Of a stretch of DNA of 64,000 bases, positions 3,780 to 28,797 are shown piece by piece. Origin of the DNA: an uncultured Alphaproteobacteria bacterium (lineage in GTDB: Bacteria > Pseudomonadota > Alphaproteobacteria > Rhizobiales > Beijerinckiaceae); contig CAWJEI010000002.1 of assembly GCA_963841875.1 (NCBI GenBank), positions 91,838-155,837 on the forward strand. Direction: 5' to 3'. Position numbers and translations under genes: made by a program. Each line of letters opens with the position of its first letter. The first letter of the stretch is position 1. The notes below the pieces were generated by a model. The model was not told the DNA's origin. It was given only the letters and a program-made list of their open reading frames with translations, and made no database searches.

Positions 3780-5305
3780 TGCGTCGCCTCGAGCGCGATG
3801 GCCTGCGCCTGCTCCAGCGTCATGCGCGAGCGATGCGCCAACTCAGCTTCGGCCTTTGGAAAATCCGAGCGAAAATGCGCGCCCCGGCTTTCGCGCCGGG
3901 CGTAAGCCGCGCTGGCGATCAGCAGCGCCGTCGTCAGCATGTTCTGCGTTTGCGGGTCTTTGCCTTGAGTTCGTAGCCGCGAGATTGCGCCGAGCGCGCG
4001 AGCAAGGCCTGTCTTGTCGCGGATGACGCCCACATTCATCGCCATCACGTCGCGCAACTCCTCAATGAGGGCGCCTTCGTCATTGTGCTGGAGTTGCTCG
4101 GAGGCGCTTTCGGGCGCCGCGCCGCCCTGCGGGCTCGCAGCGATATCCGCCGCCACGCGCGCGCCAAAGACGATGGCCTCCAGCAGCGAATTTGAGGCGA
4201 GGCGATTGGCGCCGTGCAGGCCGGTGCAGGCGACTTCTCCCGCCGCCCAGAGGCCGGGCAGGGTGGTTCGGCCCCGCGCGTCCGTGGCGACGCCGCCCAT
4301 ATGGTAATGCGCGGCGGGCGCGATGGGGATCACGGCGGTCACGGGATCTATCCCCGCCGCCATGCAGCTTGCGTAGACGGTCGGGAACCGGGACGCGAAG
4401 GCGGCGCCGACGGCGGCGCGCGCGTCGAGAAAGGCGCCCTTGCCCGCTTTGATGCTGCCAAACACCCCGCGCGCGACAATATCGCGGGGCGCGAGTTCGG
4501 CGGCGGGGTTTATGTCGGCGAGAAAGCGATGTCCGTCCCTGTCGACGATCAGCGCGCCTTCGCCGCGCAGCGATTCGGTGGCGAGCGGGGCGGGGTCGGC
4601 GCCGATGTCCATCGCCGTGGGGTGAAATTGCACGAATTCCGCGTCGGAGATCAGCGCGCCCGCCTGCGCCGCCATGGCGACGCCGGCGCCGCAGGCGTCG
4701 ACCGGATTGGTGGTGACGCGGTAGAGATGGCCGACGCCGCCTGTCGCCAGCACCAACGCCTTGCAGGGCAGGAAGCGCGTGCCGCCTTGGGCGTCGACGC
4801 CCAGGACTCCGACCGCGCGGCCTTCATGCGTGACAATGCGAAAAGCCGAAATTCCCTCGATGATCTCGATCGAGGGCGTGCGCAGAACCTCGCGAGTCAG
4901 CGCGTCCATGATCGCGCGGCCCGCCGCGTCGCCTTTCACCCGAACGATGCGACGATGCGAATGCGCCGCCTCGCGCGAGGGCTGCAACACGCCTTGCGCG
5001 TCTCGGTCGAAGGGCGCGCCGAAGGCGGCCAGATCGTCGATCCGCGCGCGCGCCTCCAGCGCCACGCCGAGGGCTACGTCGGCGTCGACGAGGCCGGCGC
5101 CCGCCGCGACGGTATCGGCGGCGTGAACCTCCGGCGTGTCCTCCTCGGTGACGGCCGCCGCGACGCCGCCCTGCGCCCAGGACGAGGCGCCGCCGATGCC
5201 TGCCGGCGCCAGTATCGCCACCGGCAGCGGCGCGAGTTTGAGCGCGCAGAAGACTCCGGCGAGCCCGCCGCCGATGATGAGAATGGGAGCTGTTGTTTCG
5301 CTCAT
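3776..5305 (-). CDS. nadB: L-aspartate oxidase
   Basis: 509 aa; N-terminal FAD-binding GGGLAG motif ([15 protein letters not shown]) and the fumarate reductase/succinate dehydrogenase flavoprotein fold signature. Overlaps nadC by 4 nt, indicating an operon. Confidence 0.9.
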
Positions 5306-5309
5306 GCGC

Positions 5310-5951
5310 TCAGTCGACCGCGACGGCGGCGAGACGCGACAGCGCGGCGGATTCCTTTTCGATCGCGGCTGTCACGAGCGCGCGGGTGCGCGGGGGCAGG
5401 GGCAGTTCGAGCGCGGCGGCATGTCCGCGCGGCGACATCTTGCACAGGGTTTTTCCCAGAATGTCGACGATCTTGTCGTCGTCATAGCCTTCGTATTTGG
5501 CGAGGAACTCGTCGAAATAATGCTCAAGGAAGACAATCGCCGCGATGTTCTCCAGCGCTTGCGATTCTCGGTCTTTCTTGAGCTGCTCCTTGCGGATCAG
5601 GGCGCCGACATGGTTCGCTTCATCGTCGGAATAGCCTTGGGCGCGCATGATGTCGCCGACCAGCTTCGCGTGATGAATGCGGCATTGCTTGCGCCAGTCG
5701 TTATAACCGTGGCGCCCTTGTGGATAGTCGGCGCGATGAATTTCCCAGCGCCGCAAATGCTGCGCGCGCGCAGCGATTTGGAGGAGTTCCGAAGCCCCCG
5801 GATAGACCGCCGCGAGACGCGCGCTCATGCGCCGGGAATAAAGCTGTTCGAAAGCGATTTCTTCGCCGTCGACAACCAGCTTGCGGGGATCGTCCGCGTT
5901 GGCGGCGTCGATCGCCGCCAGAACTGCGCTGAGCCTCGTCGTCGCGGCCAT
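5310..5951 (-). CDS. DUF4202-family protein embedded in the nad operon
   Basis: Real start is the internal Met at 5949-5951 (MAATTRLSAVLAAIDAANADD...). The longer ORF upstream overlaps the nadA 3' end in another frame. ~213 aa; content such as ...HRADYPQGRHGYNDWRKQCRIHHAKL... and ...EHYFDEFLAKYEGYDDDKIVDIL... matches DUF4202. Confidence 0.6.
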   Translation of the reverse strand: MAATTRLSAVLAAIDAANADDPRKLVVDGEEIAFEQLYSRRMSARLAAVYPGASELLQIAARAQHLRRWEIHRADYPQGRHGYNDWRKQCRIHHAKLVGDIMRAQGYSDDEANHVGALIRKEQLKKDRESQALENIAAIVFLEHYFDEFLAKYEGYDDDKIVDILGKTLCKMSPRGHAAALELPLPPRTRALVTAAIEKESAALSRLAAVAVD

Positions 5952-6019
5952 GACAGATCTCCAGAAAGGAGGGCGCAGCGCTGCTTGCCCGGGAAGAAAG
6001 CCGGAGCCGCTGGCTAACG

Positions 6020-7114
6020 CTATCCGACGTCGATCATGCGCTGCACGCTGGCGCGAGCGCGTTCGGCGAGAAGCGGATCTACCAGGACTTCCTCGCGCAT
6101 GTAGATCAGGCTGTCGAGGATTTTTGGCAGCGTGATGCGCTTCATATGCGGGCAGAAGTTGCAGGGACGGATGAACTCGGTGCCCGTCGTTTCGGCGGCC
6201 ACATTGTCGGCCATCGAGCATTCGGTGACAAGCAACACGCGCGCGGGCTTCTTGTTGCGGACGTAATCTATCATCGCGGCCGTGGAGCCCGCGAAATCCG
6301 AAATCTCCACGACTTCGCGCGGACATTCGGGATGCGCGATGATCTTCACGCCCGGATTGTCGGCGCGATAGCTCTGGATTTCCTCCGCCGTGAAGCGTTC
6401 ATGCACTTCGCAGGCGCCGTGCCAGGCGATGATCTTCACCTTTGTCTGGGCGGCGACATTCTGCGCAAGATATTTGTCCGGCAGCATGATGACGCGATCG
6501 GAGCCAAGGCTCTCGACGATCTTCAGCGCGTTGGACGAGGTGCAGCAGATGTCGACTTCCGCCTTCACTTCCGCGGAAGTGTTGACATAGGCGACGATCG
6601 GCACGCCAGGATATTCCTTGCGCAGCGCGCGCACGTCGGCGCCGGTGATCGACGCCGCCAGTGAACAGCCGGCTTCGGAGTCCGGGATCAGCACGGTCTT
6701 TTCCGGGCTGAGAATCTTCGAGGTTTCGGCCATGAAATGCACGCCGCCCTGCACGATGACGTCGGCGGGGGAGGCGGCGGCGAGCTTTGCGAGCTGAAGG
6801 CTGTCGCCGACATAATCGGCGACGCAGTGATAGATCTCCGGCGTTTGATAATTATGCGCGAGAATGACCGCGTTGCGTTCGCGTTTCAGCTCATTGATCG
6901 CCTTCACATAAGGTGCATGGAACGGCCACTCGACCGGCGGCATGACCTTCGCCACGCGCTCGTAGAGATGAGCGGTGGCGGCCTCCACTTCGGGAGTCCA
7001 CTCAAGATTGGGCCGTGGCAGAACAGGAAAGCGCGTCGCCATGCCCGTGCCGGCAAGCGTCGCGAAATGCGAGCGGCCGTCGAGTTTAGCTTCAACGCGA
7101 GACGATATACCCAT
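6020..7114 (-). CDS. nadA: Quinolinate synthase A
   Basis: 364 aa with typical NadA segments (ILAHNYQ, CCTSSNA, the Cys ligands [11 protein letters not shown]). Confidence 0.9.
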
Positions 7115-7169
7115 GACGCGCTCCCAGATTAACGCGATGTCGACATTCCGGATTCAATTCGCCTACATT

Positions 7170-7184
7170 TGCTCACTATGAGCA
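7170..7184. promoter_or_regulatory. Palindrome TGCTC-actat-GAGCA upstream of nadA (candidate operator)
   Basis: Inverted repeat read directly in the nadA / GGDEF-EAL intergenic region. Shares its core with the second palindrome at 7291-7311. Confidence 0.3.
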
Positions 7185-7290
7185 TAAGTAGGTTGCGGCG
7201 ATTGTGCCTCCGCCCTTAGACGCGGGGCCGGGGTAAGAGACTACCTTCGGGCAGGCTCGTTCAGCTCATTCGGCTGCGACGCCCAGTTAG

Positions 7291-7311
7291 ATATGCTCGT
7301 TAAGAGCATAT
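7291..7311. promoter_or_regulatory. Perfect 8+5+8 palindrome ATATGCTC-gttaa-GAGCATAT upstream of nadA (candidate NAD-regulon operator, NadQ-like)
   Basis: Perfect inverted repeat read in the sequence, with the same TGCTC/GAGCA core as 7170-7184. Sits 5' of the nadA-DUF4202-nadB-nadC operon. Confidence 0.35.
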
Positions 7312-7517
7312 GTCAAGCAAGAGCGTCAACGACCCCTTAACATTTATTGCAATGCTTACGCCTGCGCGGCGGAGGCGCTCGGCGCAGTTTGTTAGCATAT
7401 CGGAAACCTAAACTGAATTTAACCGGATTTTGGGTCCGCCGTTTACATTTGATCAAGCGTAACCGCAGACACTTTTGCCTGAACTCGTCCAAAAATTAAT
7501 ATAATTAGGGACCAGGC

Positions 7518-9557
7518 ATGTCTGTTTTTTACAACAGCGCACATCGCTCTACTTCGACAAAACTTTCCTCGCTTCGCTCCTTTTTCATGTGGCAGGCGAG
7601 CAAATGCCTGCAGCTGTTGGACGGCGATTTGCTCGCGTTTGAGGAGAGAACGCCCTCAAGCGTGGTTGTCGGGCGAATCCGGACGGAACAGCTCACGTCA
7701 GTGGCGAGCAACACCATCCTCATGATGCTGGCGTCGGCGTTGAACGCTCTTGTCTGGATGAGCGTCACCTTCCCCACGCCGAAGGCGGGGCTCGGCCTGG
7801 CCTGGGGCGCCATCGTCCTTTGTCTTTGTGGGTTTGTCGCCTTCAAGCGCCTAAATGACGACCGAAGCAATTTCTCGGCGCCTTCAAAGCGCGGACTTCA
7901 TTTGGCGACGTGCTACGCTTTCGCTTTCGGCGTGATTTGGGGCTTGCTCCCGATAATGTTTTTCGGGGATGCGGCGCCGGGGGAACGACTCATCATCGTC
8001 TGCCTCTCCAGCGGGATGATGTTTGGCGGGGCCACGGCGCTCTGGACCATTCCCACCGCGCTGCTGGCTTTCTTGGCGCCGATCTTCTGCGGATCGCTTT
8101 ACACGATCGACGCGACGGAAGGTCCGGCCTTTGGCGCTCTGGCCGCGCTGCTGGTCGTTTATACGCTCTTCCTGTTTGGGGCGAGCCTCGTCCGTTCCGT
8201 CGCCATGGCGCGCCGCTGCGTGGCCATGGTCGACGCGGAAAACAGCGTATTGAAGGATGAACTCACCAAGCTGCCCAACCGCGCGATATTCCGTAACGAG
8301 CTGACCAGAGCCCTGGCGCGTCAGGATCGCAACGGCGGCGGCTTTGCGGTGATGTGCTTCGATCTGGACGGGTTCAAGAAGGTCAATGACACGATGGGCC
8401 ACGCCGCCGGCGACCAGGTTCTTATCGAAGCGGCGCGCCGCTTGAGCCAATCGACCCGCAGCGTCGACACGTTGGCGCGTTTCGGCGGAGACGAATTCGC
8501 GTTGATCGCCACGGATATCTTTTCGCCTTCTCAGGCGAAGGTCGTCGCGGACAGGATCGTGCGCGCGTTCAAGGAACCTTTCGTCGTCGACGGCGCCGCG
8601 CATAAGGTCACGATCAGCGTCGGCGTCGCACTGGCGCCCACCGACGGCGTTGACGGCTCCGCGCTGTTGCGCAACGCCGACAGCGCGCTGTATGCGACCA
8701 AGAACTCAGGTCGCAGCGGCTTTACCCTTTTTCGAGAGCAGTTCAGGTTCGTCGCCGAACGGACGACGCTGGAAGCCGAATTGGACCGCGCGTTGGCGCA
8801 GCGCGAACTCGATATTGTTTACCAGCCGTTCGTTCATGTGGAGAGCCTGCGCACAACCGGCTTCGAGGCCCTGGTGCGGTGGCGGCATCCCTCGCGCGGC
8901 GTTCTTGAAGCCTCAGACATTATTCCTCTGCTTGAACGCGCCGGACTCATCGACGCCGTTGGCGCTCACATATTGAAAGAGGCTGTCGCCGCAGCGGCAA
9001 GCTGGCCCGAGCGCCTCCGGCTGGCGGTTCCGGTTTCACATCTACAGCTTCTCAAGCCCGGATTTGCGCAAACCGTGAAAGCGATTTTGGAGGATGCGGA
9101 CTTCAATCCCCGCCGGCTGGAGCTTGAGTTAAGCCAAAGCGCCTTGATTGTTGAATTGCCCGAGGCGATCGAGCAATTGCGCATGTTGCGGGACATGGGG
9201 GTGAAGACGGCGTTGAAGGATCTTGACGCAGGCTACGGCTCGCTGGTCGGTCTCGTGGAACTGCCGCTCAATCGCCTCAAGATCGACAAGCGCTTTGTCC
9301 GCGATCTCGTCAACAAGTCGATGTGCGCGTCTATTGTGAGGATTTCCTCCGAGCTTGCGCGCGCCTTGAACCTGGAAGTCACCGCGGAAGGCGTCGAGAA
9401 CAGCGCGCAGCTCGCGGCGATCCGGGGGCTCGGTTGCATGGAAGCGCAAGGGCCGGCCTTTGGCGCGCCGCGAGGATCGGCGGACCTCGAAGCGTTGTAT
9501 GAGTTCTCGCGCCTTGCCACGAAGTCGCGCAGGCGCCGACTGGAACGGGTCGCCTGA
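7518..9557 (+). CDS. Membrane-anchored GGDEF-EAL protein (diguanylate cyclase/phosphodiesterase)
   Basis: 679 aa with multiple N-terminal TM helices, a GGDEF motif (RFGGDEF) and an EAL domain (EALVRWRHP..., ...DLDAGYGSL...). The start codon is uncertain; several in-frame Met lie downstream. Confidence 0.85.
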   Translation: MSVFYNSAHRSTSTKLSSLRSFFMWQASKCLQLLDGDLLAFEERTPSSVVVGRIRTEQLTSVASNTILMMLASALNALVWMSVTFPTPKAGLGLAWGAIVLCLCGFVAFKRLNDDRSNFSAPSKRGLHLATCYAFAFGVIWGLLPIMFFGDAAPGERLIIVCLSSGMMFGGATALWTIPTALLAFLAPIFCGSLYTIDATEGPAFGALAALLVVYTLFLFGASLVRSVAMARRCVAMVDAENSVLKDELTKLPNRAIFRNELTRALARQDRNGGGFAVMCFDLDGFKKVNDTMGHAAGDQVLIEAARRLSQSTRSVDTLARFGGDEFALIATDIFSPSQAKVVADRIVRAFKEPFVVDGAAHKVTISVGVALAPTDGVDGSALLRNADSALYATKNSGRSGFTLFREQFRFVAERTTLEAELDRALAQRELDIVYQPFVHVESLRTTGFEALVRWRHPSRGVLEASDIIPLLERAGLIDAVGAHILKEAVAAAASWPERLRLAVPVSHLQLLKPGFAQTVKAILEDADFNPRRLELELSQSALIVELPEAIEQLRMLRDMGVKTALKDLDAGYGSLVGLVELPLNRLKIDKRFVRDLVNKSMCASIVRISSELARALNLEVTAEGVENSAQLAAIRGLGCMEAQGPAFGAPRGSADLEALYEFSRLATKSRRRRLERVA

Positions 9558-9629: not shown

Positions 9630-10580
9630 ATGTCGCTGGAAACGTCACAAATACGATATCCGCACCGCCATCTGCTTGGGATCGAGGGCTTGTCCCGGCC
9701 CGAGATACTGGCTCTGCTGGAAATGGCGGAGAACGCCATCGAAGTTTCGCGCCAGGTCGAAAAGAAAAGCTCGAAGCTGCGGGGGCGCACCCAGATCAAT
9801 CTGTTTTACGAATCCTCGACGCGCACCCAGGCCTCGTTCGAAATCGCCGGCAAGAGGCTTGGCGCCGACGTCATGAACATGTCGGTCGCTCAATCTTCGG
9901 AAAAAAAAGGCGAGACGCTTATCGACACGGCCATGACGCTGAACGCAATGCGCCCGGATATCATTGTCGTCCGTCACGCCCAGGCCGGCGCCGCGCACCT
10001 TCTTGCGCGCAAGGTCGACTGTTCCGTCGTGAACGCGGGTGACGGCGCCCATGAACACCCCACGCAGGCGCTGCTTGATGCGCTCACGATCCGCAGGAAC
10101 AAGGGGCGCATCGAGGGGCTTAACGTTGCGATATGCGGCGACGTGCTCCATTCGCGCGTGGCCCGGTCCAACATACTTCTCCTTGGCGCGCTGGGCGCGC
10201 GGCTCCGGGCGGTGGGGCCTTCGACTCTGGTTCCGCGCACGCTTGAGAGGCTGGGCGTCGAGGTTTTCAACGACATGGCGCGCGGGCTCGACGGCGTGGA
10301 TATCGTGATGATGCTGCGCCTGCAGCGAGAGCGCATGAGTGGCGCGCTTGTTCCCAGTTCACGCGAATATTTCCATTTTTTCGGGCTCGACGAGGAAAAG
10401 CTTGCGCGGGCGGCTCCAGGCGCGCTCGTGATGCATCCCGGGCCGATGAACCGGGGCGTGGAGATTGACTCGACCGTCGCCGACGGGCCGCAGTCGCTCA
10501 TCCGCGAGCAGGTCGAGATGGGGGTGGCCGTACGCATGGCCGTGCTCGAGGCTCTCGCGCATCATCTTCCAAATGTGTAA
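9630..10580 (+). CDS. pyrB: Aspartate carbamoyltransferase catalytic subunit
   Basis: 316 aa with STRTQ (carbamoyl-phosphate binding), HPTQ and the HPGP/LP motifs of ATCase/OTCase. Confidence 0.9.
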
Positions 10581-10624
10581 TCATGGGGGCAGGATTTCAG
10601 CTCTCTGACTTCAAGGGGTGACCA

Positions 10625-10981
10625 ATGATGAAGCTCATTCGACTGGGCGGTCTCTTGTCCCAGTCCATTTTCCTGCAATTCGTCCATCTGGTTGGCCTGG
10701 GCGCCTTCTTGATCGCGGCGGCGCTTGGATATTTCCGGGTTCCGTCATGGACCGTCCCGATACTCGCGGTGGCGTTCGGCGTGGGCGCGGACAGATTAGT
10801 GGATGTCACCGACGTCACCGGACTGCTTGAAAAGGCGTCGAAGGCCAATGAGCGCGGGGGGTTTCTGATCCTCGTCTATGCGGTGATCACCATAGTGGGC
10901 TATATCGTGGGCGCTTATGGTCGCCATCATCTTGAAAATTCAAGGATTGCGGCGGCGCCGCAAGTCTCCGCAAAAAAATAG
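10625..10981 (+). CDS. Hypothetical small membrane protein
   Basis: 118-aa ORF with 3 predicted TM helices and high GC3. No recognisable family. Confidence 0.35.
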   Translation: MMKLIRLGGLLSQSIFLQFVHLVGLGAFLIAAALGYFRVPSWTVPILAVAFGVGADRLVDVTDVTGLLEKASKANERGGFLILVYAVITIVGYIVGAYGRHHLENSRIAAAPQVSAKK

Positions 10982-11075
10982 TCGTTTGGCCTGCGCCTTT
11001 CGGGCGGCGGCGTCCCGAAACGGGGCCCGCGAGATGGCCGATGCGGCGGGCGATTGCACCCGCCGCTCGATCACG

Positions 11076-12056
11076 TCACAGTCCTTCGAACAGCGCGGTT
11101 GAGAGATAGCGTTCGGCGAAAGACGGGATGATAAGGACTATGTTCTTTCCCTCGGCTTCGGGCCGCGCGGCGATTTCAAGCGCCGCCGCGACCGCCGCGC
11201 CGGAGGATATGCCAACCGGAATGCCCTCGATGCGCGCCAGATGCCGCGCGGTTTCAAAGGCGGTCTGATTGCCGATCGTGATGATTTCGTCGATCACGCT
11301 GCGATCAAGCACGGGCGGCACAAATCCCGCCCCGATGCCCTGGATCTTGTGCGGTCCCGGCGGGCGCCCGGACAAGACCGCTGAATCCTCCGGCTCGACG
11401 GCGACGATGCGCAATCCGGGACGGCGTGGCTTCAGAGCCTGCCCAACGCCCGTGATGGTGCCGCCGGTGCCGACGCCCGAGACGAAATAGTCGACTTCGC
11501 CATTGGTGTCGTTCCAGATTTCCTCGGCAGTGGTGGTTCGATGAATTTCCGGATTGGCCGGATTCTCGAATTGCTGCGGGATGACCGCGCCGGGGTTTTC
11601 GGCCGCGAGCTCATTGGCCTTGGCGACCGCGCCCTTCATGCCTTGGGCGGCAGGGGTCAGCACAAGCTCGGCGCCGAGCAGGGCAAGCATTTTTCGCCGT
11701 TCGATCGACATTGACTCCGGCATGACGAGGATGAGCCGGTAGCCCCGCGCTGCGGCGACGAAGGCCAGCGCGATGCCGGTGTTGCCGGAGGTCGGTTCGA
11801 TCAGGACATTCTTGCCCGGCGCGATCTTGCCGCTCTTCTCCAAGGACTCGATCAGATTGACGCCGATGCGGTCCTTGACGCTGGAAATCGGGTTAAAGAA
11901 CTCGAGCTTCGCAAGCAAATTGGCCTTTACGCCCTTTTCCTTCGCCAGTCGGTCGAGACGCACGATGGGCGTATCGCCGATCGTTTGGGTGATTGAGTCA
12001 TAGATGCGTCCGCGACCGGGTTTGGCGGGGGGCGTGTAATTGGGGCTTTGCGACAC
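11076..12056 (-). CDS. cysK: Cysteine synthase A (O-acetylserine sulfhydrylase)
   Basis: 326 aa with the PLP-enzyme motifs SVKDR and GNTG and the CysK C-terminal pattern. Confidence 0.9.
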
Positions 12057-12139
12057 CTTGGCTGCTCCGTGTTTGACGGCGTCGTCGCTGCCGCGCCGCG
12101 CGTCGTTGGACCGAATGAAACTTCATCGTCTCGCCGCCG

Positions 12140-22799: not shown

Positions 22800-25269
22800 A
22801 TGAGTTCGACAAGAAAATCGGCGGCAGGATATATTCTGATCATCGTTGTCGCGCTGACGCTGGGATTCGTGGTTCAAAATAACGCGGAGCGGGAATACGC
22901 GCTCGCCCAGCAGCATTTCATCGACCAGGCTCAGGCCGAGACCCGCGTTGTCGCCCGACAGGCCGAGAGCTCGTTGAAGTCGATTTATGAAAACCTGCGC
23001 ACCCTGAGCTACCTGCCCAGCATCCGCAACATTGATCGTCATGGCCGGAACCTCAGCGCAGAAGCCCGCGAGACCATTCGCCAAATATACAACAATCTGG
23101 CCGCCGACATCACGGTCTCGGAGATCTACATCGTTCCCGCGACACTCGATCCGGACAGGATCGACCCCTCCACGGGAAAAAACGAAGAACCGATCTTGAT
23201 GTTCGACAATCTGATCCTGAAATCACCGCGCATCGCGGCTGGCGGCGGATGAGGGCCCGTTCCACATCCAGACCGAGGCGAGCGAAAACGAGCCGGAAGA
23301 GGAAGAAGGCTTCGAATATCGCCAGATGCGCGATCAGTTCAGCTGGCTGAAGCAGCATTTTCCCGATCAGGGCAAGTTCGGCGACCTGCAGGTTCCGATC
23401 ATCAGCGGACCCGAGATCGTCACCTGCGACAATTCCAAATTCAGGGTCAGCCGCCTGGACGCCGATCGCAAGGGCGTTCTTTTTTCGGTGCCGTTTTACG
23501 GCGAGGATGGCGTTCTGAAGGGCAGCGTCACCGCCGTCGTGTTGAACAGCGTTCTCAAGAGCTTCCTGCCCCCGCGCAACATCTCGCTGATCAACCCGGC
23601 CTATAATTACGCCACGCCCTTCAGCGACCACGGTCAGGAAAAGGTCTCGTCATCCTGGGTTCAACGGGCGACCGCCGATCCGTCGCTCCTGTATTCCGAG
23701 GTGATTCCGCTCAATCTCAATGACCCCATGGGCCCCTGGCTGCTGTGGTCGGGCTATCCCAATTCGGCCTTCAGATATGGAGTTGAAGCCCATTCCATCG
23801 GCCTGTCGAAGCTCTCCGCCTTTTTCATCATCGTCTTGTTGACCCTTGCGGGCGTCATCGGGTGGACCCTCGCCCTGCGCACCTTCGCGCTGACGGCGGC
23901 CAAGGCGGCGAGCCGACGCCTTGAGCAGCGCGTCGCCGAGCGCACGGCCGAGATCAGCTATCTCGCGGCGCACGACGCCTTGACCGGTCTCGCCAATCGC
24001 AGCCGCTTCGGCGAGAGCCTCGCGAAGGCGCTCAGCCGCACAAAACGCGGGGAGAAGCTGGCCGTCCATCTCATCGATCTCGACCGCTTCAAATCGGTCA
24101 ACGACACGCTGGGACATCCTGTCGGCGACAAATTGCTGACGATGGTCGCCGACCGCGTGCGCGCGCAATTGCGGGATACCGATGTGGTCGCGCGCATGGG
24201 CGGCGACGAATTCATGCTGCTCCAGACCCAGCTTGACGATCCAAAGGACGCTGTGGCCCTCGCGACGCGAATTATCAGGGTTCTGGCGGAGCCCTTCGAG
24301 ATCGACGATCATCACGTGTCCGTCGGCGCCAGCATAGGCATCGCCATCGCGCCGCAGGACGGCGATGCGCCAGACGAATTGATCCGCAACGCGGACCTTG
24401 GCCTCTACCGCGCCAAGAAGGATGGACGCGGGACATACTGCTTCTTCGAGCAGGACATGAACGAGAAGATGCAGGCGCGCGGGTCGATGGAGCGCGCGCT
24501 TCGGAAAGCGCTCGCGAACAAGGAGTTCGAACTCCATTATCAGCCGATCTACGATCTCTCGACGAACAGGATGAACGGCGTCGAGGCTCTTCTGCGCTGG
24601 CGCCATCCCGACGAGGGGCTTATCCCGCCCGATCGATTCATCCCCCTCGCCGAGGAGACCAGCCTCATCATACCGATCGGCGAATGGGTGATCCGGGAGG
24701 CCTGCGCGACGGTCGCGCGCGCTCCGGAAATTCCCAGAGTGGCGGTCAATCTGTCGGCGGCCCAGTTTCGCAGTCAGGCGCTTGTCGACGTGGTGATAAG
24801 CGCATTGCGGGAGTCAGGCCTTGAGCCGCGCCGCCTCGAACTGGAGATCACCGAGAGCCTCCTGATGGACGGCTCGGAATCGACGGTCACGATGCTTCAC
24901 CAGCTGCACGATCTGGGCGTGCGCATCGCCATGGACGATTTCGGCACCGGCTATTCCTCGCTCAGCTATCTGCAGAGCTTTCCCTTCGACAAGATCAAGA
25001 TCGACCGCTCCTTCGTCAAAGGCATTGGCGGCAACGCCGGATCGCTCAGCATCGTCCGGGCGGTGGCGGCGCTCGCAAGCGGCCTCGGCATAGCGACGAC
25101 GGCCGAAGGCGTCGAAACCCAGTCGCAGCTCGACGCGGTGAGGCTTGAGGGCTGTTCCGAAATGCAGGGATTCCTGATGAGCAAGCCCTTGACCTTCGAG
25201 CAGCTCAAAGAGTTTCTGCAATCGAAGCAGACGCTGCTCGGCGCGGCGGAGCGGCGGGACGCGGCCTGA
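22800..25269 (+). CDS. Sensor GGDEF-EAL protein (TM1, periplasmic domain, TM2, GGDEF, EAL), interrupted by an apparent +1 frameshift near 23215-23250
   Basis: ORF 22800-23252 encodes TM1 plus the start of a periplasmic domain. ORF 23326-25269 is open upstream to 23221 and encodes the rest: the periplasmic domain, TM2 (LSAFFIIVLLTLAGVIGWTLAL), GGDEF (ARMGGDEF) and EAL (EALLRWRHP). The second ORF alone would have no signal peptide or TM1 for its periplasmic domain. Confidence 0.7.
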
Positions 25270-25286: not shown

Positions 25287-26177
25287 TCACTCCGGCGCGG
25301 GCGGTTCTTCCTTGGGCGCTCGGCGTCGCTCGGCCTGCGCGGCTTCCTCGCGCGCCTGTGCTTCCTCCAGCTTCTTGCGCCGGCGGGCGTTGGGCTCGCG
25401 GCGCGGGCCTTCGACGAGGCGCACCACAACGCCCCAGAGCGTGCGCACATCCTGTTCCGTCAGGCTCATGCGATGGAACATGTTGCGCAGGTTGCGCGCC
25501 ATGACGGGCTTCTTGGTCTTGGGCCTGAAGAAGTCGCGCGCGTCGAGCTGCTCTTCCAGAAACTCGAAGAAAGCCGCCGTCATTTCGCGCGTCGCGGGCG
25601 GCGAGCGTTCGCTCGTGTCGAAGGGCAGGGCGTCGCCATGCGCGGCGCGGAGCCATTCATAGCCCGTCAGCAGCACCGCCTGCGCGAGATTGAGCGAGGC
25701 ATAGGCGGGATTGACCGGGAAGGTGAGGATGGCGTCGGCCAGCGCCACGTCGTCATTGTCGAGCCCCGTGCGCTCCGGTCCGAACATGACGCCATGTCTT
25801 TCGCCGGTGGCGATCCGCCCCGCCATGACCGGCATCGCCTGCGAGGGGATATGCACCGGCTTCATCTGCCCGCGCCCGCGCGCCGTGGCGGCGTAGCAGA
25901 AGGTCAGATCGGCGATGGCGGCGGGCACGTCCGGATAGACCTTGGCGCTCTCCAGCAGATGCACGGCCCCGGCGGCGGCGGCGTAGGCGCCCTTGCGATA
26001 GGCCCCGGTGCGCGGCCAGCCCTCGCGCGGGGCGACGAGACGCAGATCGGAGAGGCCGAAATTGGCCATCGCCCGCGCGCACATGCCGATGTTAACCGCG
26101 AGCTGCGGCCGCACCAGAATGATGGCGGGTCCGCCTTCGAGCTTTGGCTTGGTGTGGTCGGTGCCGGCGCCGGTCAT
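25287..26177 (-). CDS. SpoU/TrmH-family RNA 2'-O-methyltransferase (TrmJ-like) with basic C-terminal tail
   Basis: 296 aa with the SPOUT-class motifs (IILVRPQLAVNIG..., VMFGPERTGL...) and a Lys/Arg/Glu-rich C-terminus. Confidence 0.8.
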   Translation of the reverse strand: MTGAGTDHTKPKLEGGPAIILVRPQLAVNIGMCARAMANFGLSDLRLVAPREGWPRTGAYRKGAYAAAAGAVHLLESAKVYPDVPAAIADLTFCYAATARGRGQMKPVHIPSQAMPVMAGRIATGERHGVMFGPERTGLDNDDVALADAILTFPVNPAYASLNLAQAVLLTGYEWLRAAHGDALPFDTSERSPPATREMTAAFFEFLEEQLDARDFFRPKTKKPVMARNLRNMFHRMSLTEQDVRTLWGVVVRLVEGPRREPNARRRKKLEEAQAREEAAQAERRRAPKEEPPAPE

Positions 26178-26497
26178 TGGAGCGGGTCGCCGTCTGGAGA
26201 GAAGGCGGCGTCCGTGTCTTTGCGGGAATGCAAAATATTGACAATCAGCAGCCGGTCTTCCTCGTAACGCATGAACAACAAATAGCCTCTGAAAGGGAAG
26301 CTTCTCAGCCCCGGCAAAAGATTGTCGCGAGGCCGGCCGACGGTCGAGGGCAGGGCCGCGATTTTTTCGATCTGGGTGACAATAGTTTCGACAAACACTC
26401 TCTCGCGCGCATTTTCGGCGAATTGCTCGGCGAGATATTCGAAAATATCGTCGAGATCACGCAGAGCGGCGTCCGACAGAATTAGATTACGCTTCAA
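26174..26497 (-). CDS. parE: Type II toxin ParE/RelE family
   Basis: 107-aa ParE-like protein (…RDLDDIFEYLAEQ…GYLLFMRYEEDRLLIVNILHSRKD). Overlaps the upstream antitoxin gene by 4 nt. Confidence 0.8.
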   Translation of the reverse strand: MKRNLILSDAALRDLDDIFEYLAEQFAENARERVFVETIVTQIEKIAALPSTVGRPRDNLLPGLRSFPFRGYLLFMRYEEDRLLIVNILHSRKDTDAAFSPDGDPLQ

Positions 26498-26739
26498 CGG
26501 CCTCGGGCCTCGAGTTCCCGATGCTTCCGTTCGATGCGGGCGCGGGCGTCGGCGATCGTGTTTTCGCCCCCTTCCGCCAGCGACGCCTCGATTGTCTCGC
26601 GCAAGCTCTGGAGTTTCGCCTCGCGCTCCTCGACAAGACGCAGACCCTCGCGCATCACCTCGGTCGCCGAAGCGTAGCGGCCTGATTTCACCAGCGCGTC
26701 GATAAACTCTTCCCAGCGTTTGCCCACGGATACGTTCAT
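26494..26739 (-). CDS. parD: Type II antitoxin ParD (RHH/CopG fold)
   Basis: 81 aa, N-terminus ...VSVGKRWEEFIDALVKSGRYASATEVMREGLRLVEEREAKLQSLR..., a typical ParD antitoxin. Lies immediately upstream of the toxin gene with translational coupling. Confidence 0.75.
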   Translation of the reverse strand: MNVSVGKRWEEFIDALVKSGRYASATEVMREGLRLVEEREAKLQSLRETIEASLAEGGENTIADARARIERKHRELEARGR

Positions 26740-26786
26740 GGCTCTACTCCCGTGGCTCCACTATAACACGATATGCGCATAGCGTG

Positions 26787-27209
26787 TCATTGCCGCGCCG
26801 CCCGCTCCAGATTGAGCGCCAGCAGCCTCGCCAGCGCGTCCTCGGTCGAAATATCCTCCGGCCAGCCATAGGCGGAAGCGACGGCGCGGTCGAGTTCGGC
26901 ATGGATGTTTTCCAGCCAGCTGGGGCGCTCATTGTAAAGATTGGTCAGCGTGCGGGTCTTCAGCCTAGCGGCGCCCCTCATCCGGCCCCGCTGGCGCGGG
27001 TCCACCTTCTCCCGCGAGGGGAGAAGGGGCCGCGAAGCACACGATGCACACCCGCACCGCCGCGCCGTCGAGTATCCAGGGCTCGTCGCTCCAAGCCTCG
27101 AAGATCGCGCTGCTCTGGGCGATGGGCTCCAGCACGCGGCGGTTGGCGCCGCCGCCCGTTCGGTCAGCGCATGCGTCTTCCATTTGCGGACGAAATCTTG
27201 CGGGGTCAC
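26787..27209 (-). pseudogene. Decayed relic of a MmeI/PglX-like class I SAM-dependent N6-adenine DNA methyltransferase (type IIG RM / BREX-type)
   Basis: The 140-aa ORF retains only the family N-terminus (MTPQDFVRKWKTHALTERAAA..., cf. ...FI.KW....L.ERSAAQSHF) and the extreme C-terminus (...TRTLTNLYNERPSWLENIHAELDRAVASAYGWPEDISTEDALARLLALNLERA). An overlapping minus-frame ORF (26965-27270) holds a third fragment, ...VLEPIAQSSAIFEAWSDEPWILDGAAVRVCIVCFA. The fragments are contiguous in the DNA, but in the family they are separated by hundreds of residues, so large internal deletions plus a frameshift have occurred. Family assignment rests on recalled motif similarity. Confidence 0.5.
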
Positions 27210-27294
27210 TGGACAGGGAATCGGGCCAAAGGCGGAATCGAAGCCCCGAACCTACTCCCTCTCCCCCCAAACAGGGAGAGGGACTGCTCCCGAA

Positions 27295-28584
27295 TTACGT
27301 GCGTTTCGTCATCGGCACATATTCGCGCTGCGGCTCGCCTGTGTAGAGCTGGCGCGGGCGGCCGATCTTGGAGCCGGGATCCTCGATCATCTCCTTCCAC
27401 TGGGCGATCCAGCCCACGGTGCGCGCGAGGGCGAAGAGCACGGTGAACATCGTGGTCGGGAAGTTCATCGCCTTGAGCGTGATGCCCGAATAGAAGTCAA
27501 TGTTGGGATAGAGTTTCTTCTCGATGAAATATTCGTCGTGCAGCGCGATGCGCTCCAGCTCCAGCGCGACGTCGAGCAGCGCGTCCTTGACGCCAAGCTC
27601 GTTCAGCACCTCGCGCGTGGTCACCTGCATGATCTTCGCGCGGGGGTCGTAGTTCTTGTACACGCGATGGCCAAAGCCCATCAGGCGGAACGGATCGTCC
27701 TTGTCCTTCGCCTTGGCGATGAATTGCGGAATCCGGTCGACCGTCCCGATCTGCTCCAGCATCTTCAGCACGGCTTCATTGGCGCCGCCATGCGCCGGCC
27801 CCCAGAGCGAAGCGATGCCCGCCGCGATGCAGGCGAAGGGATTGGCGCCCGACGAGCCCGAAAGGCGGACGGTGGAGGTGGAGGCGTTTTGCTCGTGGTC
27901 GGCGTGGAGGATGAAGATGCGGTCCAGCGCGCGCGAAAGCACCGGATTGACCTTGTAGTCCTCGCAAGGCACGGCGAAGCACATGCGCAGGAAGTTCGAC
28001 GTGTAGTCGAGGTCGTTCTTGGGATAAACGAAAGGCTGGCCGATCGAATATTTATAGGCCATCGCCGCGAGCGTCGGAATCTTGGCGATCATGCGCGTCG
28101 AGGCGACCATGCGCTCGACCGGATCGTTGATATTGGTCGAGTCGTGATAGAAGGCCGAAAGCGCGCCGACCGACGCCACCATCACCGCCATCGGATGCGC
28201 GTCGCGGCGGAACCCCTGGAAGAACCGGGCCATCTGCTCATGCACCATGGTGTGGCGCGTGATGCGATAGTCGAACTCAGCCTTCTGATTGCCGGTCGGC
28301 AGTTCGCCGTAAAGCAGCAGATAGCAGGTCTCCAGAAAGTCGCCGTGCTCGGCGAGCTGCTGGATCGGATAGCCGCGATAGAGCAGCACGCCGGCGTCGC
28401 CGTCGATATAGGTGATCTTGGATTCGCAGCTCGCGGTAGAGGTAAAGCCCGGATCATAGGTGAACATGCCTGTCGCGCCATAGAGCGAGCGAATGTCCAT
28501 CACGTCAGGGCCGATCGTGCCCTTTTTGATGGGGAGATCGACCGTTTTGCCGTCGACAGTCATGGAACCCTTGGACGCCGTCAT
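27295..28584 (-). CDS. gltA: Citrate synthase
   Basis: Classic type II citrate synthase (…[14 protein letters not shown]…, …NIDFYSG…). Start taken at [13 protein letters not shown] (ATG 28582-28584), which has an upstream SD aaggtgga. The ORF-track N-terminal extension was rejected. Confidence 0.9.
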
Positions 28585-28797
28585 CGCTCCACCTTCCTTA
28601 CGTCGCGTCTGGAGACCTTTCGTCCGCGCATTGATGCGTTGCATTAGCGCATGCTTCAATTGGCGTGAAACGAAGAAGGCTTTTCTCTAATTTGGCCCCC
28701 ATAGGCGAGTTGTGCATCGCACAACGCTATAACAACGCCGCGCCTTGTCAAGCGACGCTGAAGCTATGCAGGAGCCGCATCCATCAATCGGAGGGCG

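Follow-up and report, generated by a model that had tools for sequence, protein, structure and literature searches.

Restriction-modification enzymes of the MmeI family (type IIG/IIL) carry on a single polypeptide, in this order, a PD-ExK nuclease, a helical spacer, a gamma-class N6-adenine methyltransferase, a target-recognition domain (TRD) and a C-terminal domain. They cleave ~20 nt away from an asymmetric site and protect the host by m6A (N6-methyladenine) on a single strand. The nuclease residues of MmeI are D70, E80 and K82 (Morgan et al. 2009, PMC2731913) and its structure is deposited as PDB 5HR4 (Callahan et al. 2016, PMC4833311). Genes of this family are described as standing alone without a second methyltransferase, and disrupted native family members have been reported (PMC2731913). 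The methyltransferase core of PglX, from the bacteriophage exclusion (BREX) systems, is distantly related. Here we describe a locus on a 64,000-nt stretch of DNA (hereafter the window; GenBank assembly GCA_963841875.1, contig CAWJEI010000002.1, positions 91,838 to 155,837) from a Methylocystis-like bacterium. At 26787-27209 of the window lies what is very probably the dead remnant of an MmeI-family gene, dismantled by deletions, beside an intact and selected parD-parE toxin-antitoxin (TA) module that appears to be coupled to spoU, a gene for a SpoU/TrmH-family RNA methyltransferase.

ParD proteins are DNA-binding antitoxins and autorepressors, and ParE proteins are gyrase poisons. Like ParD1/ParE1 of Caulobacter crescentus (PDB 3KXE) and related chromosomal ParDE pairs, the module in the window has the antitoxin gene first, a 4-nt overlap between the two genes and small products (81 and 107 aa). 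Unlike in the Caulobacter pair, the stop codon of parE overlaps the start of spoU/trmH, and the TA pair would head an operon with a housekeeping gene. A further component of the locus is a repetitive extragenic palindromic (REP)-like element. Palindromic elements of Rickettsia lie in frame inside ORFs (open reading frames), and the REP copies of the relatives described below resemble them in this respect. The element also resembles REP sequences and REPINs (REP doublets forming hairpins; Bertels and Rainey 2011, PMC3116915) in being short, GC-rich, hairpin-forming and often arranged in inverted pairs. It differs from them in that no REP-associated tyrosine transposase (RAYT) was seen and in being rare: related loci totalling 1.1 Mb contain 35 cores, which are concentrated at this locus.

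Remains of an MmeI-family gene between gltA and parD

Read on the minus strand, the genes follow one another as gltX, a YjbR-like gene, gltA, an 85-nt spacer, a 140-aa ORF, a 47-nt spacer, parD, parE and the SpoU/TrmH-family gene. Three pieces of one restriction gene were located between gltA and parD by comparison with P0145, a full-length family member of 1013 aa, and with L001, a metagenome contig carrying a near-full syntenic copy:

27147-27209, minus strand: N-terminal relic, codons 1-21, MTPQDFVRKWKTHALTERAAA (blastn 95% to L001 6847-6909; tblastn to residues 1-21 of P0145)
27146-27155, minus strand: deletion junction 1, 10-nt microhomology GCGGCGGCGC (overlap of two blastn alignments)
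27028-27155, minus strand: middle relic, end of the methyltransferase domain, ~residues 555-599, GGGANRRVLEPIAQSSAIFEAWSDEPWILDGAAVRVCIVCFA (tblastn; blastn to L001 8656-8783)
26965-27027, unstranded: REP-like palindromic element of ~62 nt at the second deletion junction (95% to L001 9348-9411; related to L001 8816-8876 and 9228-9289)
26787-26966, minus strand: C-terminal relic, codons ~893-950 plus stop, MmeI_C domain (blastn 94.7% to L001 10440-10609)
26787-27209, minus strand: 140-aa chimeric ORF, made up of the N-terminal piece, out-of-frame middle DNA, the REP-like element and the C-terminal piece

By tblastn, P0145 residues 1-21 matched 27209-27147 (frame -3, E=0.001), residues 539-610 matched 27186-26998 (frame -2, E=4e-15) and residues 895-950 matched 26966-26799 (frame -3, E=3e-16), the three fragments being colinear in P0145. 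At the nucleotide level the pieces matched the gene on L001 with identities of 95%, 79% (with a 33-nt gap) and 88-95% (best E=5e-57). Such agreement is far beyond chance. The original prediction, which had been made from the letters of the window alone, had described a 140-aa ORF joining the first ~21 and last ~57 residues of a large methyltransferase with a third family fragment in another frame between them, and both points were borne out. The comparison with related genomes that it had proposed also succeeded, the gene itself being recovered from relatives (see below).

P0145 is one of the 476 matches that the 45-aa middle fragment gave in an exhaustive phmmer search; they lie at ~540-630 of proteins of 945-1015 aa. 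Three-frame translation placed the middle relic in a frame different from that of the other two pieces. The C-terminal relic reads RLKTRTLTNLYNERPSWL...LALNLERAARQ up to its stop codon, in the same frame as the N-terminal piece, whose start codon is GTG in the window and ATG in L001. The stretch between the middle and C-terminal pieces that translates as PSPLAGEGGPAPAGPDEG is the REP-like element. Most likely, the 140-aa ORF is not a gene. Searched against Pfam and NCBIfam it returned MmeI_C only (E=0.0015, 19 bits, under the 27-bit cut-off), and because this match is sub-threshold the family assignment was taken from homologues and synteny. A 101-aa ORF in the alternative frame gave nothing above threshold in the same two databases, and tblastn found no further copy of the restriction-gene family in the window. 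A 72-aa protein (P0004) is 100% identical to the C-terminal part of the ORF, the gene caller having taken only those 72 aa; a search for encoding contigs returned no record for P0004 or for the 71-aa C-terminal ORF of the window.

An intact orthologue was found on L054, a groundwater metagenome-assembled genome (MAG) of a more distant Methylocystis, detected by a SpoU protein search of a single genome for each species, followed by local mapping. L054 encodes an uninterrupted ORF of 1088 aa (4087-7353), followed by parD-parE-spoU. This ORF has Pfam hits to MmeI_N, MmeI_hel, MmeI_Mtase, MmeI_TRD and MmeI_C, three of the five above the gathering cut-off and MmeI_TRD and MmeI_C just under it (22.7 bits against 27). 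It matches the MmeI structure 5HR4 with E=4e-38 and the PADLOC model REase_MTase_IIG with E=0 and 1040 bits. The nuclease motif D-X9-E-Y-K is present in the orthologues, L054 included, as are DPACGSGNFL (S-adenosylmethionine (SAM)-binding motif I) and NPPF (catalytic motif IV) in L054, L001 and L017, and like the MmeI family the orthologues carry all domains in the canonical order. Judged by these relatives, the ancestral gene was homologous to the MmeI family across the whole polypeptide, and the copy in the window is a relic rather than a functional member.

Unlike MmeI, the window copy amounts to ~125 of ~1000 codons (~11% of the gene) in two frames, with every catalytic motif gone. Residues 1-21 of the N-terminal domain remain. 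What followed in the nuclease domain, PD-ExK motif included, is lost, and so are the helicase-like spacer, the TRD, and the SAM-binding and NPPF motifs, which both lie inside the first deletion. The relic can therefore neither cut nor methylate DNA, and the strain is expected to lack the corresponding m6A motif.

The alignment between the window and L001 falls into four blocks, namely 30631-27146 to L001 3423-6909 (87%, gltX to codon 21), 27155-26969 to 8656-8876 (79%, middle piece and REP), 27027-26965 to 9348-9411 (95%, REP) and 26956-25287 to 10440-12109 (93%, C-terminal piece to spoU). These colinear blocks skip L001 6910-8655 and 9412-10439. We propose that a chromosomal MmeI-family gene, encoding restriction and methylation on one polypeptide, formerly filled the space between gltA and parD and that two or three deletions removed the rest of it. 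The first would have taken out ~1.6-1.75 kb, from codon 21 to ~555, by recombination across the 10-nt GCGGCGGCGC and would have shifted the frame. Both pieces contain this sequence, as ERAAA codons in the N-terminal one and as GGGA codons in the middle one, and its copies on L001 (6900-6909 and 8656-8665) are 1756 nt apart, corresponding to a +1 frameshift; the junction has the appearance of a classic microhomology deletion. The second deletion, of ~1 kb, may have run from a REP-like element inserted after codon 599 to ~codon 893; junction 2 abuts this element and the sequence up to codon ~893 is gone. A third event, recombination between two REP copies, possibly removed a cassette encoding a DUF559 domain that is discussed in the last section.

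The parD-parE module and its neighbour spoU

Three features make up the TA module and its upstream region:

26174-26497, minus strand: parE toxin gene, 107 aa, TTG start (Pfam ParE_toxin, PF05016, E=1.3e-14, profile positions 1-88 of 89)
26494-26739, minus strand: parD antitoxin gene, 81 aa (Pfam ParD_antitoxin, PF03693, E=3.4e-17; TIGR02606 E=7e-20)
26747-26790, minus strand: putative parDE promoter/operator, assigned by eye

The two genes are small and adjacent, the antitoxin gene comes first, and the ParD and ParE domains are present at full length. The original prediction of an intact-looking pair with a 4-nt overlap between the TrmH-like gene and gltA holds, the overlap being TTGA at 26494-26497. 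Against the PDB, ParE matched the ParE toxins 7YCS (7e-7), 8C24 (1e-5) and 3KXE (4e-4), and ParD matched Caulobacter ParD1 (3KXE_C, E=2.3e-11). The ratio of non-synonymous to synonymous substitution rates (dN/dS) was 0.19-0.21 for parE (against L007 and L010) and 0.03-0.10 for parD. In an independent assembly, L083, parE is 100% identical and the whole parDE module is identical. The sequence therefore has the marks of an intact type II TA module of the Caulobacter ParDE1 type under purifying selection.

The parE stop and the SpoU/TrmH start share a second 4-nt overlap, ATGA at 26174-26177, from which we infer that the housekeeping gene spoU/trmH is translationally coupled to the toxin gene, and it would be coupled to parDE transcriptionally as well. 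The overlap itself was read in the window alone; the ORF coordinates of L001 and L054 agree with it. The spacer between the relic and parD is a candidate autoregulated parDE promoter that would serve spoU too. It holds a possible -35 box (ATGACA, 26790-26785) overlapping the TGA stop of the relic, a -10 box (TATAGT, 26765-26760) and a ribosome-binding site (GGGAG, 26751-26747), the 19-nt spacer between the boxes carrying a 22-nt near-perfect palindrome (26766-26787, inverted-repeat search). This promoter would overlap the final codons of the relic, which along with toxin addiction would be a plausible reason for the deletions stopping short of parD, since the need to keep promoter and antitoxin would limit their extent on that side. 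A terminator scan of 26000-27500 gave two terminator-like matches, both inside parE and at chance level.

A tract of 370 nt (26900-26530), which reaches from the end of the relic across the spacer and over most of parD, has only 3 mismatches to L001 10500-10870 and is flanked by sequence that diverges by 7-13%. Between the window and L001, dS was 0.017 for parD, 0.41 for spoU and 0.49 for gltA. This points to a recent recombination patch at 26530-26900.

The original prediction had regarded the TA pair as an orphan left behind by a lost defence locus. A version of that idea, in which parDE and the restriction gene arrived together as one mobile defence islet, deserves consideration, as they stand together 5' of spoU in two different settings, behind gltA (clade of the window) and behind idh (isocitrate dehydrogenase; L054), and as REP-like elements cluster in this segment. 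We regard it as possible but doubtful. In Methylosinus (L021, L022, L029 and L046) and in L073, parDE lies directly 5' of spoU and no MmeI-like gene is present. L017 has the MmeI-like gene but lacks parDE, and the module is itself decaying in L004 and L005 (truncated parD in both). Compared with the window proteins, ParD is 71-87% and ParE 42-49% identical in L006, L022, L046, L054 and L073, all 5' of spoU, and the TA module therefore seems to have its own history. Since parDE is found without the restriction gene and coupled to spoU, we favour an independent module over a leftover of the restriction locus. As to the identity contrast itself, the toxin gene has either been exchanged or diverges much faster than the antitoxin gene.

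The suggestion of a hot spot of defence-island turnover proved overstated. The region upstream of spoU was compared by idh-to-spoU distances, as tblastx single-linkage clustering was uninformative through chaining. In ~30 further Methylocystis genomes idh directly adjoins spoU and nothing intervenes, and in more distant genomes the gap is filled by a two-component system, a polyhydroxybutyrate (PHB) depolymerase, a DEAD-box helicase or chromate transporters. These are ordinary genes, and a diverse defence hot spot was dropped as a candidate. The site is clearly variable, but its recurrent cargo consists of one restriction gene, parDE and REP elements only. A second, independent footprint at the site upstream of spoU comes from another lineage, L056, where 42 N-terminal residues of this restriction gene survive as a relic (2250-2375) in the 136-nt idh-spoU gap.

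Decay of the restriction gene in related genomes

The closest relatives, with SpoU proteins 88-97% identical, form a decay series at this one locus. A 202-aa C-terminal fragment from the first homology search (P0008) was located on the metagenome contigs L001 and L002, where the order is gltX-yjbR-gltA, a 1056-aa ORF with MmeI_hel, MmeI_Mtase and DUF559, a 202-aa ORF with TRD and C-terminal domain, and parD-parE-spoU. L001, L002 and L003 thus carry a near-full MmeI-like gene plus parDE between gltA and spoU, with an extra frameshift in L002, and in L017 a near-full gene lies between gltA and spoU with a REP pair in place of parDE. Residues 1-197 and 710-934 remain in L010, next to parDE, and residues 1-178 and 900-937 in L005, where parD is truncated and a REP pair is present. 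L004 retains a C-terminal piece only, with a TAT-to-TAA stop and a truncated parD. L007 retains the C-terminal 220 residues and parDE on a contig that begins within the gene, so that more may lie upstream. The site is empty in L008 and L009, with ~110 nt between gltA and spoU. All breakpoints differ between lineages, and the decays are therefore independent.

Some observations weigh against a dead gene beside an intact, promoter-driven TA operon. In every pairwise comparison, those of relic with relic included, dN/dS of the C-terminal relic is only 0.11-0.20. Even between relic-bearing lineages the ratio is low, and the divergence would therefore mostly predate the loss of selection, the losses being recent. 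We read these values as recent, independent decay; continuing constraint on the piece is also compatible with them. By eye, the lineage-specific changes in the C-terminal relic come to ~4 synonymous and 2 non-synonymous codons, which is very few. The frameshifts in L001, L002 and L017 could be long-read errors, so that those genes may be either dead or alive. Lastly, a sigma-70 promoter scan of 26000-27500, covering 16-18 nt spacers only, found no site, the promoter upstream of parD having been assigned by eye.

Besides the syntenic relatives, short metagenome ORFs of 83-190 aa fuse N- and C-termini of the family at differing breakpoints (P0001, P0029, P0043, P0044, P0074, P0077, P0079 and P0102). 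The best 120 matches to a spliced N- plus C-terminal query were all of 204 aa or less, and internal-deletion relics of this restriction-enzyme family seem to be very common in environmental Alphaproteobacteria. A conserved family of small proteins was considered for these mini-ORFs and rejected, as their junctions differ and some contain frameshifted stretches (P0002 and P0003).

That the 140-aa ORF or its 72-aa C-terminal part is nevertheless a functional mini-protein assembled from MmeI termini could be argued from the many independent short fusions (e.g. P0029, P0043, P0044, P0074, P0077 and P0102), from the low dN/dS of the C-terminal piece and from its last ~100 nt being nearly identical to L001. 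This is very unlikely in our view. Junctions differ in every lineage, P0002 and P0003 are plainly frameshifted in places, a TAA stop interrupts the L004 copy in frame, and the middle ~60 codons of the window ORF are out-of-frame or REP-derived. A query of joined N- and C-termini searched against called ORFs alone selects for in-frame fusions, and at 62% GC long spurious ORFs arise frequently. The stretch of near-identity includes parD and so looks like a recombination patch.

There is hardly any chance that the deletions are artefacts of sequencing or assembly and that the true genome holds an intact gene. The closest relatives are long-read MAGs with probable indel errors (the frameshifts of L001, L002 and L017), but what is missing from the window is ~3.3 kb rather than single bases, and the clean 10-nt microhomology at junction 1 is typical of real deletions. 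L083 (Methylocystis sp., GCA_049285895.1) has the same junction of middle piece, REP and C-terminal piece with 2 single-nucleotide polymorphisms (SNPs) and the same downstream EAL gene. As junction 2 is identical in this independent assembly, it is a real structure.

Descent from BREX PglX, which the original prediction had named next to MmeI when it spoke of a former restriction or BREX-like locus, can be regarded as effectively refuted: the two share a gamma-class N6-adenine methyltransferase core and the intact L054 orthologue has weak matches to PADLOC PglX models (E=1.6e-4 and 1.7e-5, ~17-21 bits against 1040 bits for type IIG), but all five MmeI Pfam domains are present in it, among them the N-terminal nuclease with D-X9-E-X-K, a domain that PglX lacks, and no brx or pgl genes flank the restriction gene in L001 (gltA, parD) or L054 (isocitrate dehydrogenase, parD). 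Of that prediction the restriction gene lost by internal deletions stands, and by its homologues the ancestor was a stand-alone MmeI-type restriction-modification enzyme, not a component of a multi-gene BREX system.

The locus is an ordinary pseudogene beside an ordinary TA pair, and what it records is ordinary gene decay. Restriction-modification pseudogenes and chromosomal ParDE modules are both commonplace, and in itself the relic is of minor importance. Annotations should mark the 140-aa or 72-aa ORF as a fragment of a pseudogene. The value lies in a natural one-locus series within a methanotroph clade that comprises intact and near-full genes, varied internal deletions, loss of the TA module and the empty site. 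The series shows a single-polypeptide restriction gene being dismantled by microhomology and REP-associated deletions, and a TA pair kept or lost independently of its neighbour.

REP-like elements, the DUF559 cassette and flanking features

The most interesting by-product of the comparison are in-frame insertions of REP-like elements and DUF559 in the genes of the relatives. The REP-like element between the middle and C-terminal pieces, which was absent from the original prediction, is the single copy in the window and folds with -49 kcal/mol (z=-2.6). L001 and L017 carry an in-frame insert after residue 599 (L001 8784-9398; L017 ~6012-6562) in which a complete DUF559 domain (Vsr-like, E=1e-38) is preceded by one REP and followed by an inverted REP and then a further REP. 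Further in-frame REP-derived inserts follow ~residues 481 and 752 (genes compared: L054 4087-7353, L001 6846-10609 and L017 4213-7774), and the intact 1088-aa ORF of L054 is open across all three insert sites. In the passages of PMC2731913 consulted, neither REP-derived inserts nor DUF559 are mentioned for the MmeI family.

The REP of the window occupies precisely the residue-599 site; on the left it resembles the first L001 copy and on the right the third. Either recombination from REP to REP excised a DUF559 cassette here, or the lineage of the window never had the cassette. Homologues of DUF559 are mostly stand-alone alphaproteobacterial proteins of 130-200 aa, with matches reaching into the REP-derived flanks, and some are fused to unrelated proteins, e.g. 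MobA-like proteins or a type ISP specificity domain. The combination of DUF559 and REP suggests a mobile cassette. It is conceivable, if rather unlikely, that the restriction gene tolerated in-frame insertion of REPs and of the DUF559 cassette under purifying selection, in the manner of the Rickettsia palindromic elements, and that the same REPs then seeded the deletions. DUF559 plus REP would in that case be a previously unrecognised mobile cassette entering coding sequence in Methylocystaceae; in a weaker variant the C-terminal piece would still be expressed and functional.

The flanks of the locus comprise the following features:

30607-29183, minus strand: gltX (ORF list)
27295-28659, minus strand: gltA, citrate synthase (Pfam Citrate_synt, E=3e-138)
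27257-27282, minus strand: GC-rich hairpin with an 11-bp stem just 3' of the gltA stop (inverted-repeat search and folding)
25287-26177, minus strand: SpoU/TrmH-family RNA methyltransferase gene (Pfam SpoU_methylase, E=1e-20)

The hairpin next to gltA reads CCCTCTCCCC-N6-GGGGAGAGGG and folds with -29 kcal/mol (z=-2.5). Its sequence resembles the REP core at 27005-27027, no third such element being found in the 64 kb, and it may be terminator-like or REP-like. It falls inside the block aligning to L001, but L008 and L009, in which the site is empty, show no homology to it between gltA and spoU. An Rfam scan of 26000-27500 (E<=1) gave only two nonsense matches to eukaryotic families and no known RNA family.

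Directly past spoU, synteny between the window and L001 (12201-15386) ends. A GGDEF-EAL gene occupies 23326-25269 on the plus strand of the window, and this convergent signalling gene follows spoU in L083 as well, dnaE being found there in L001 and L002. The different neighbours past spoU place the locus at a rearrangement boundary.

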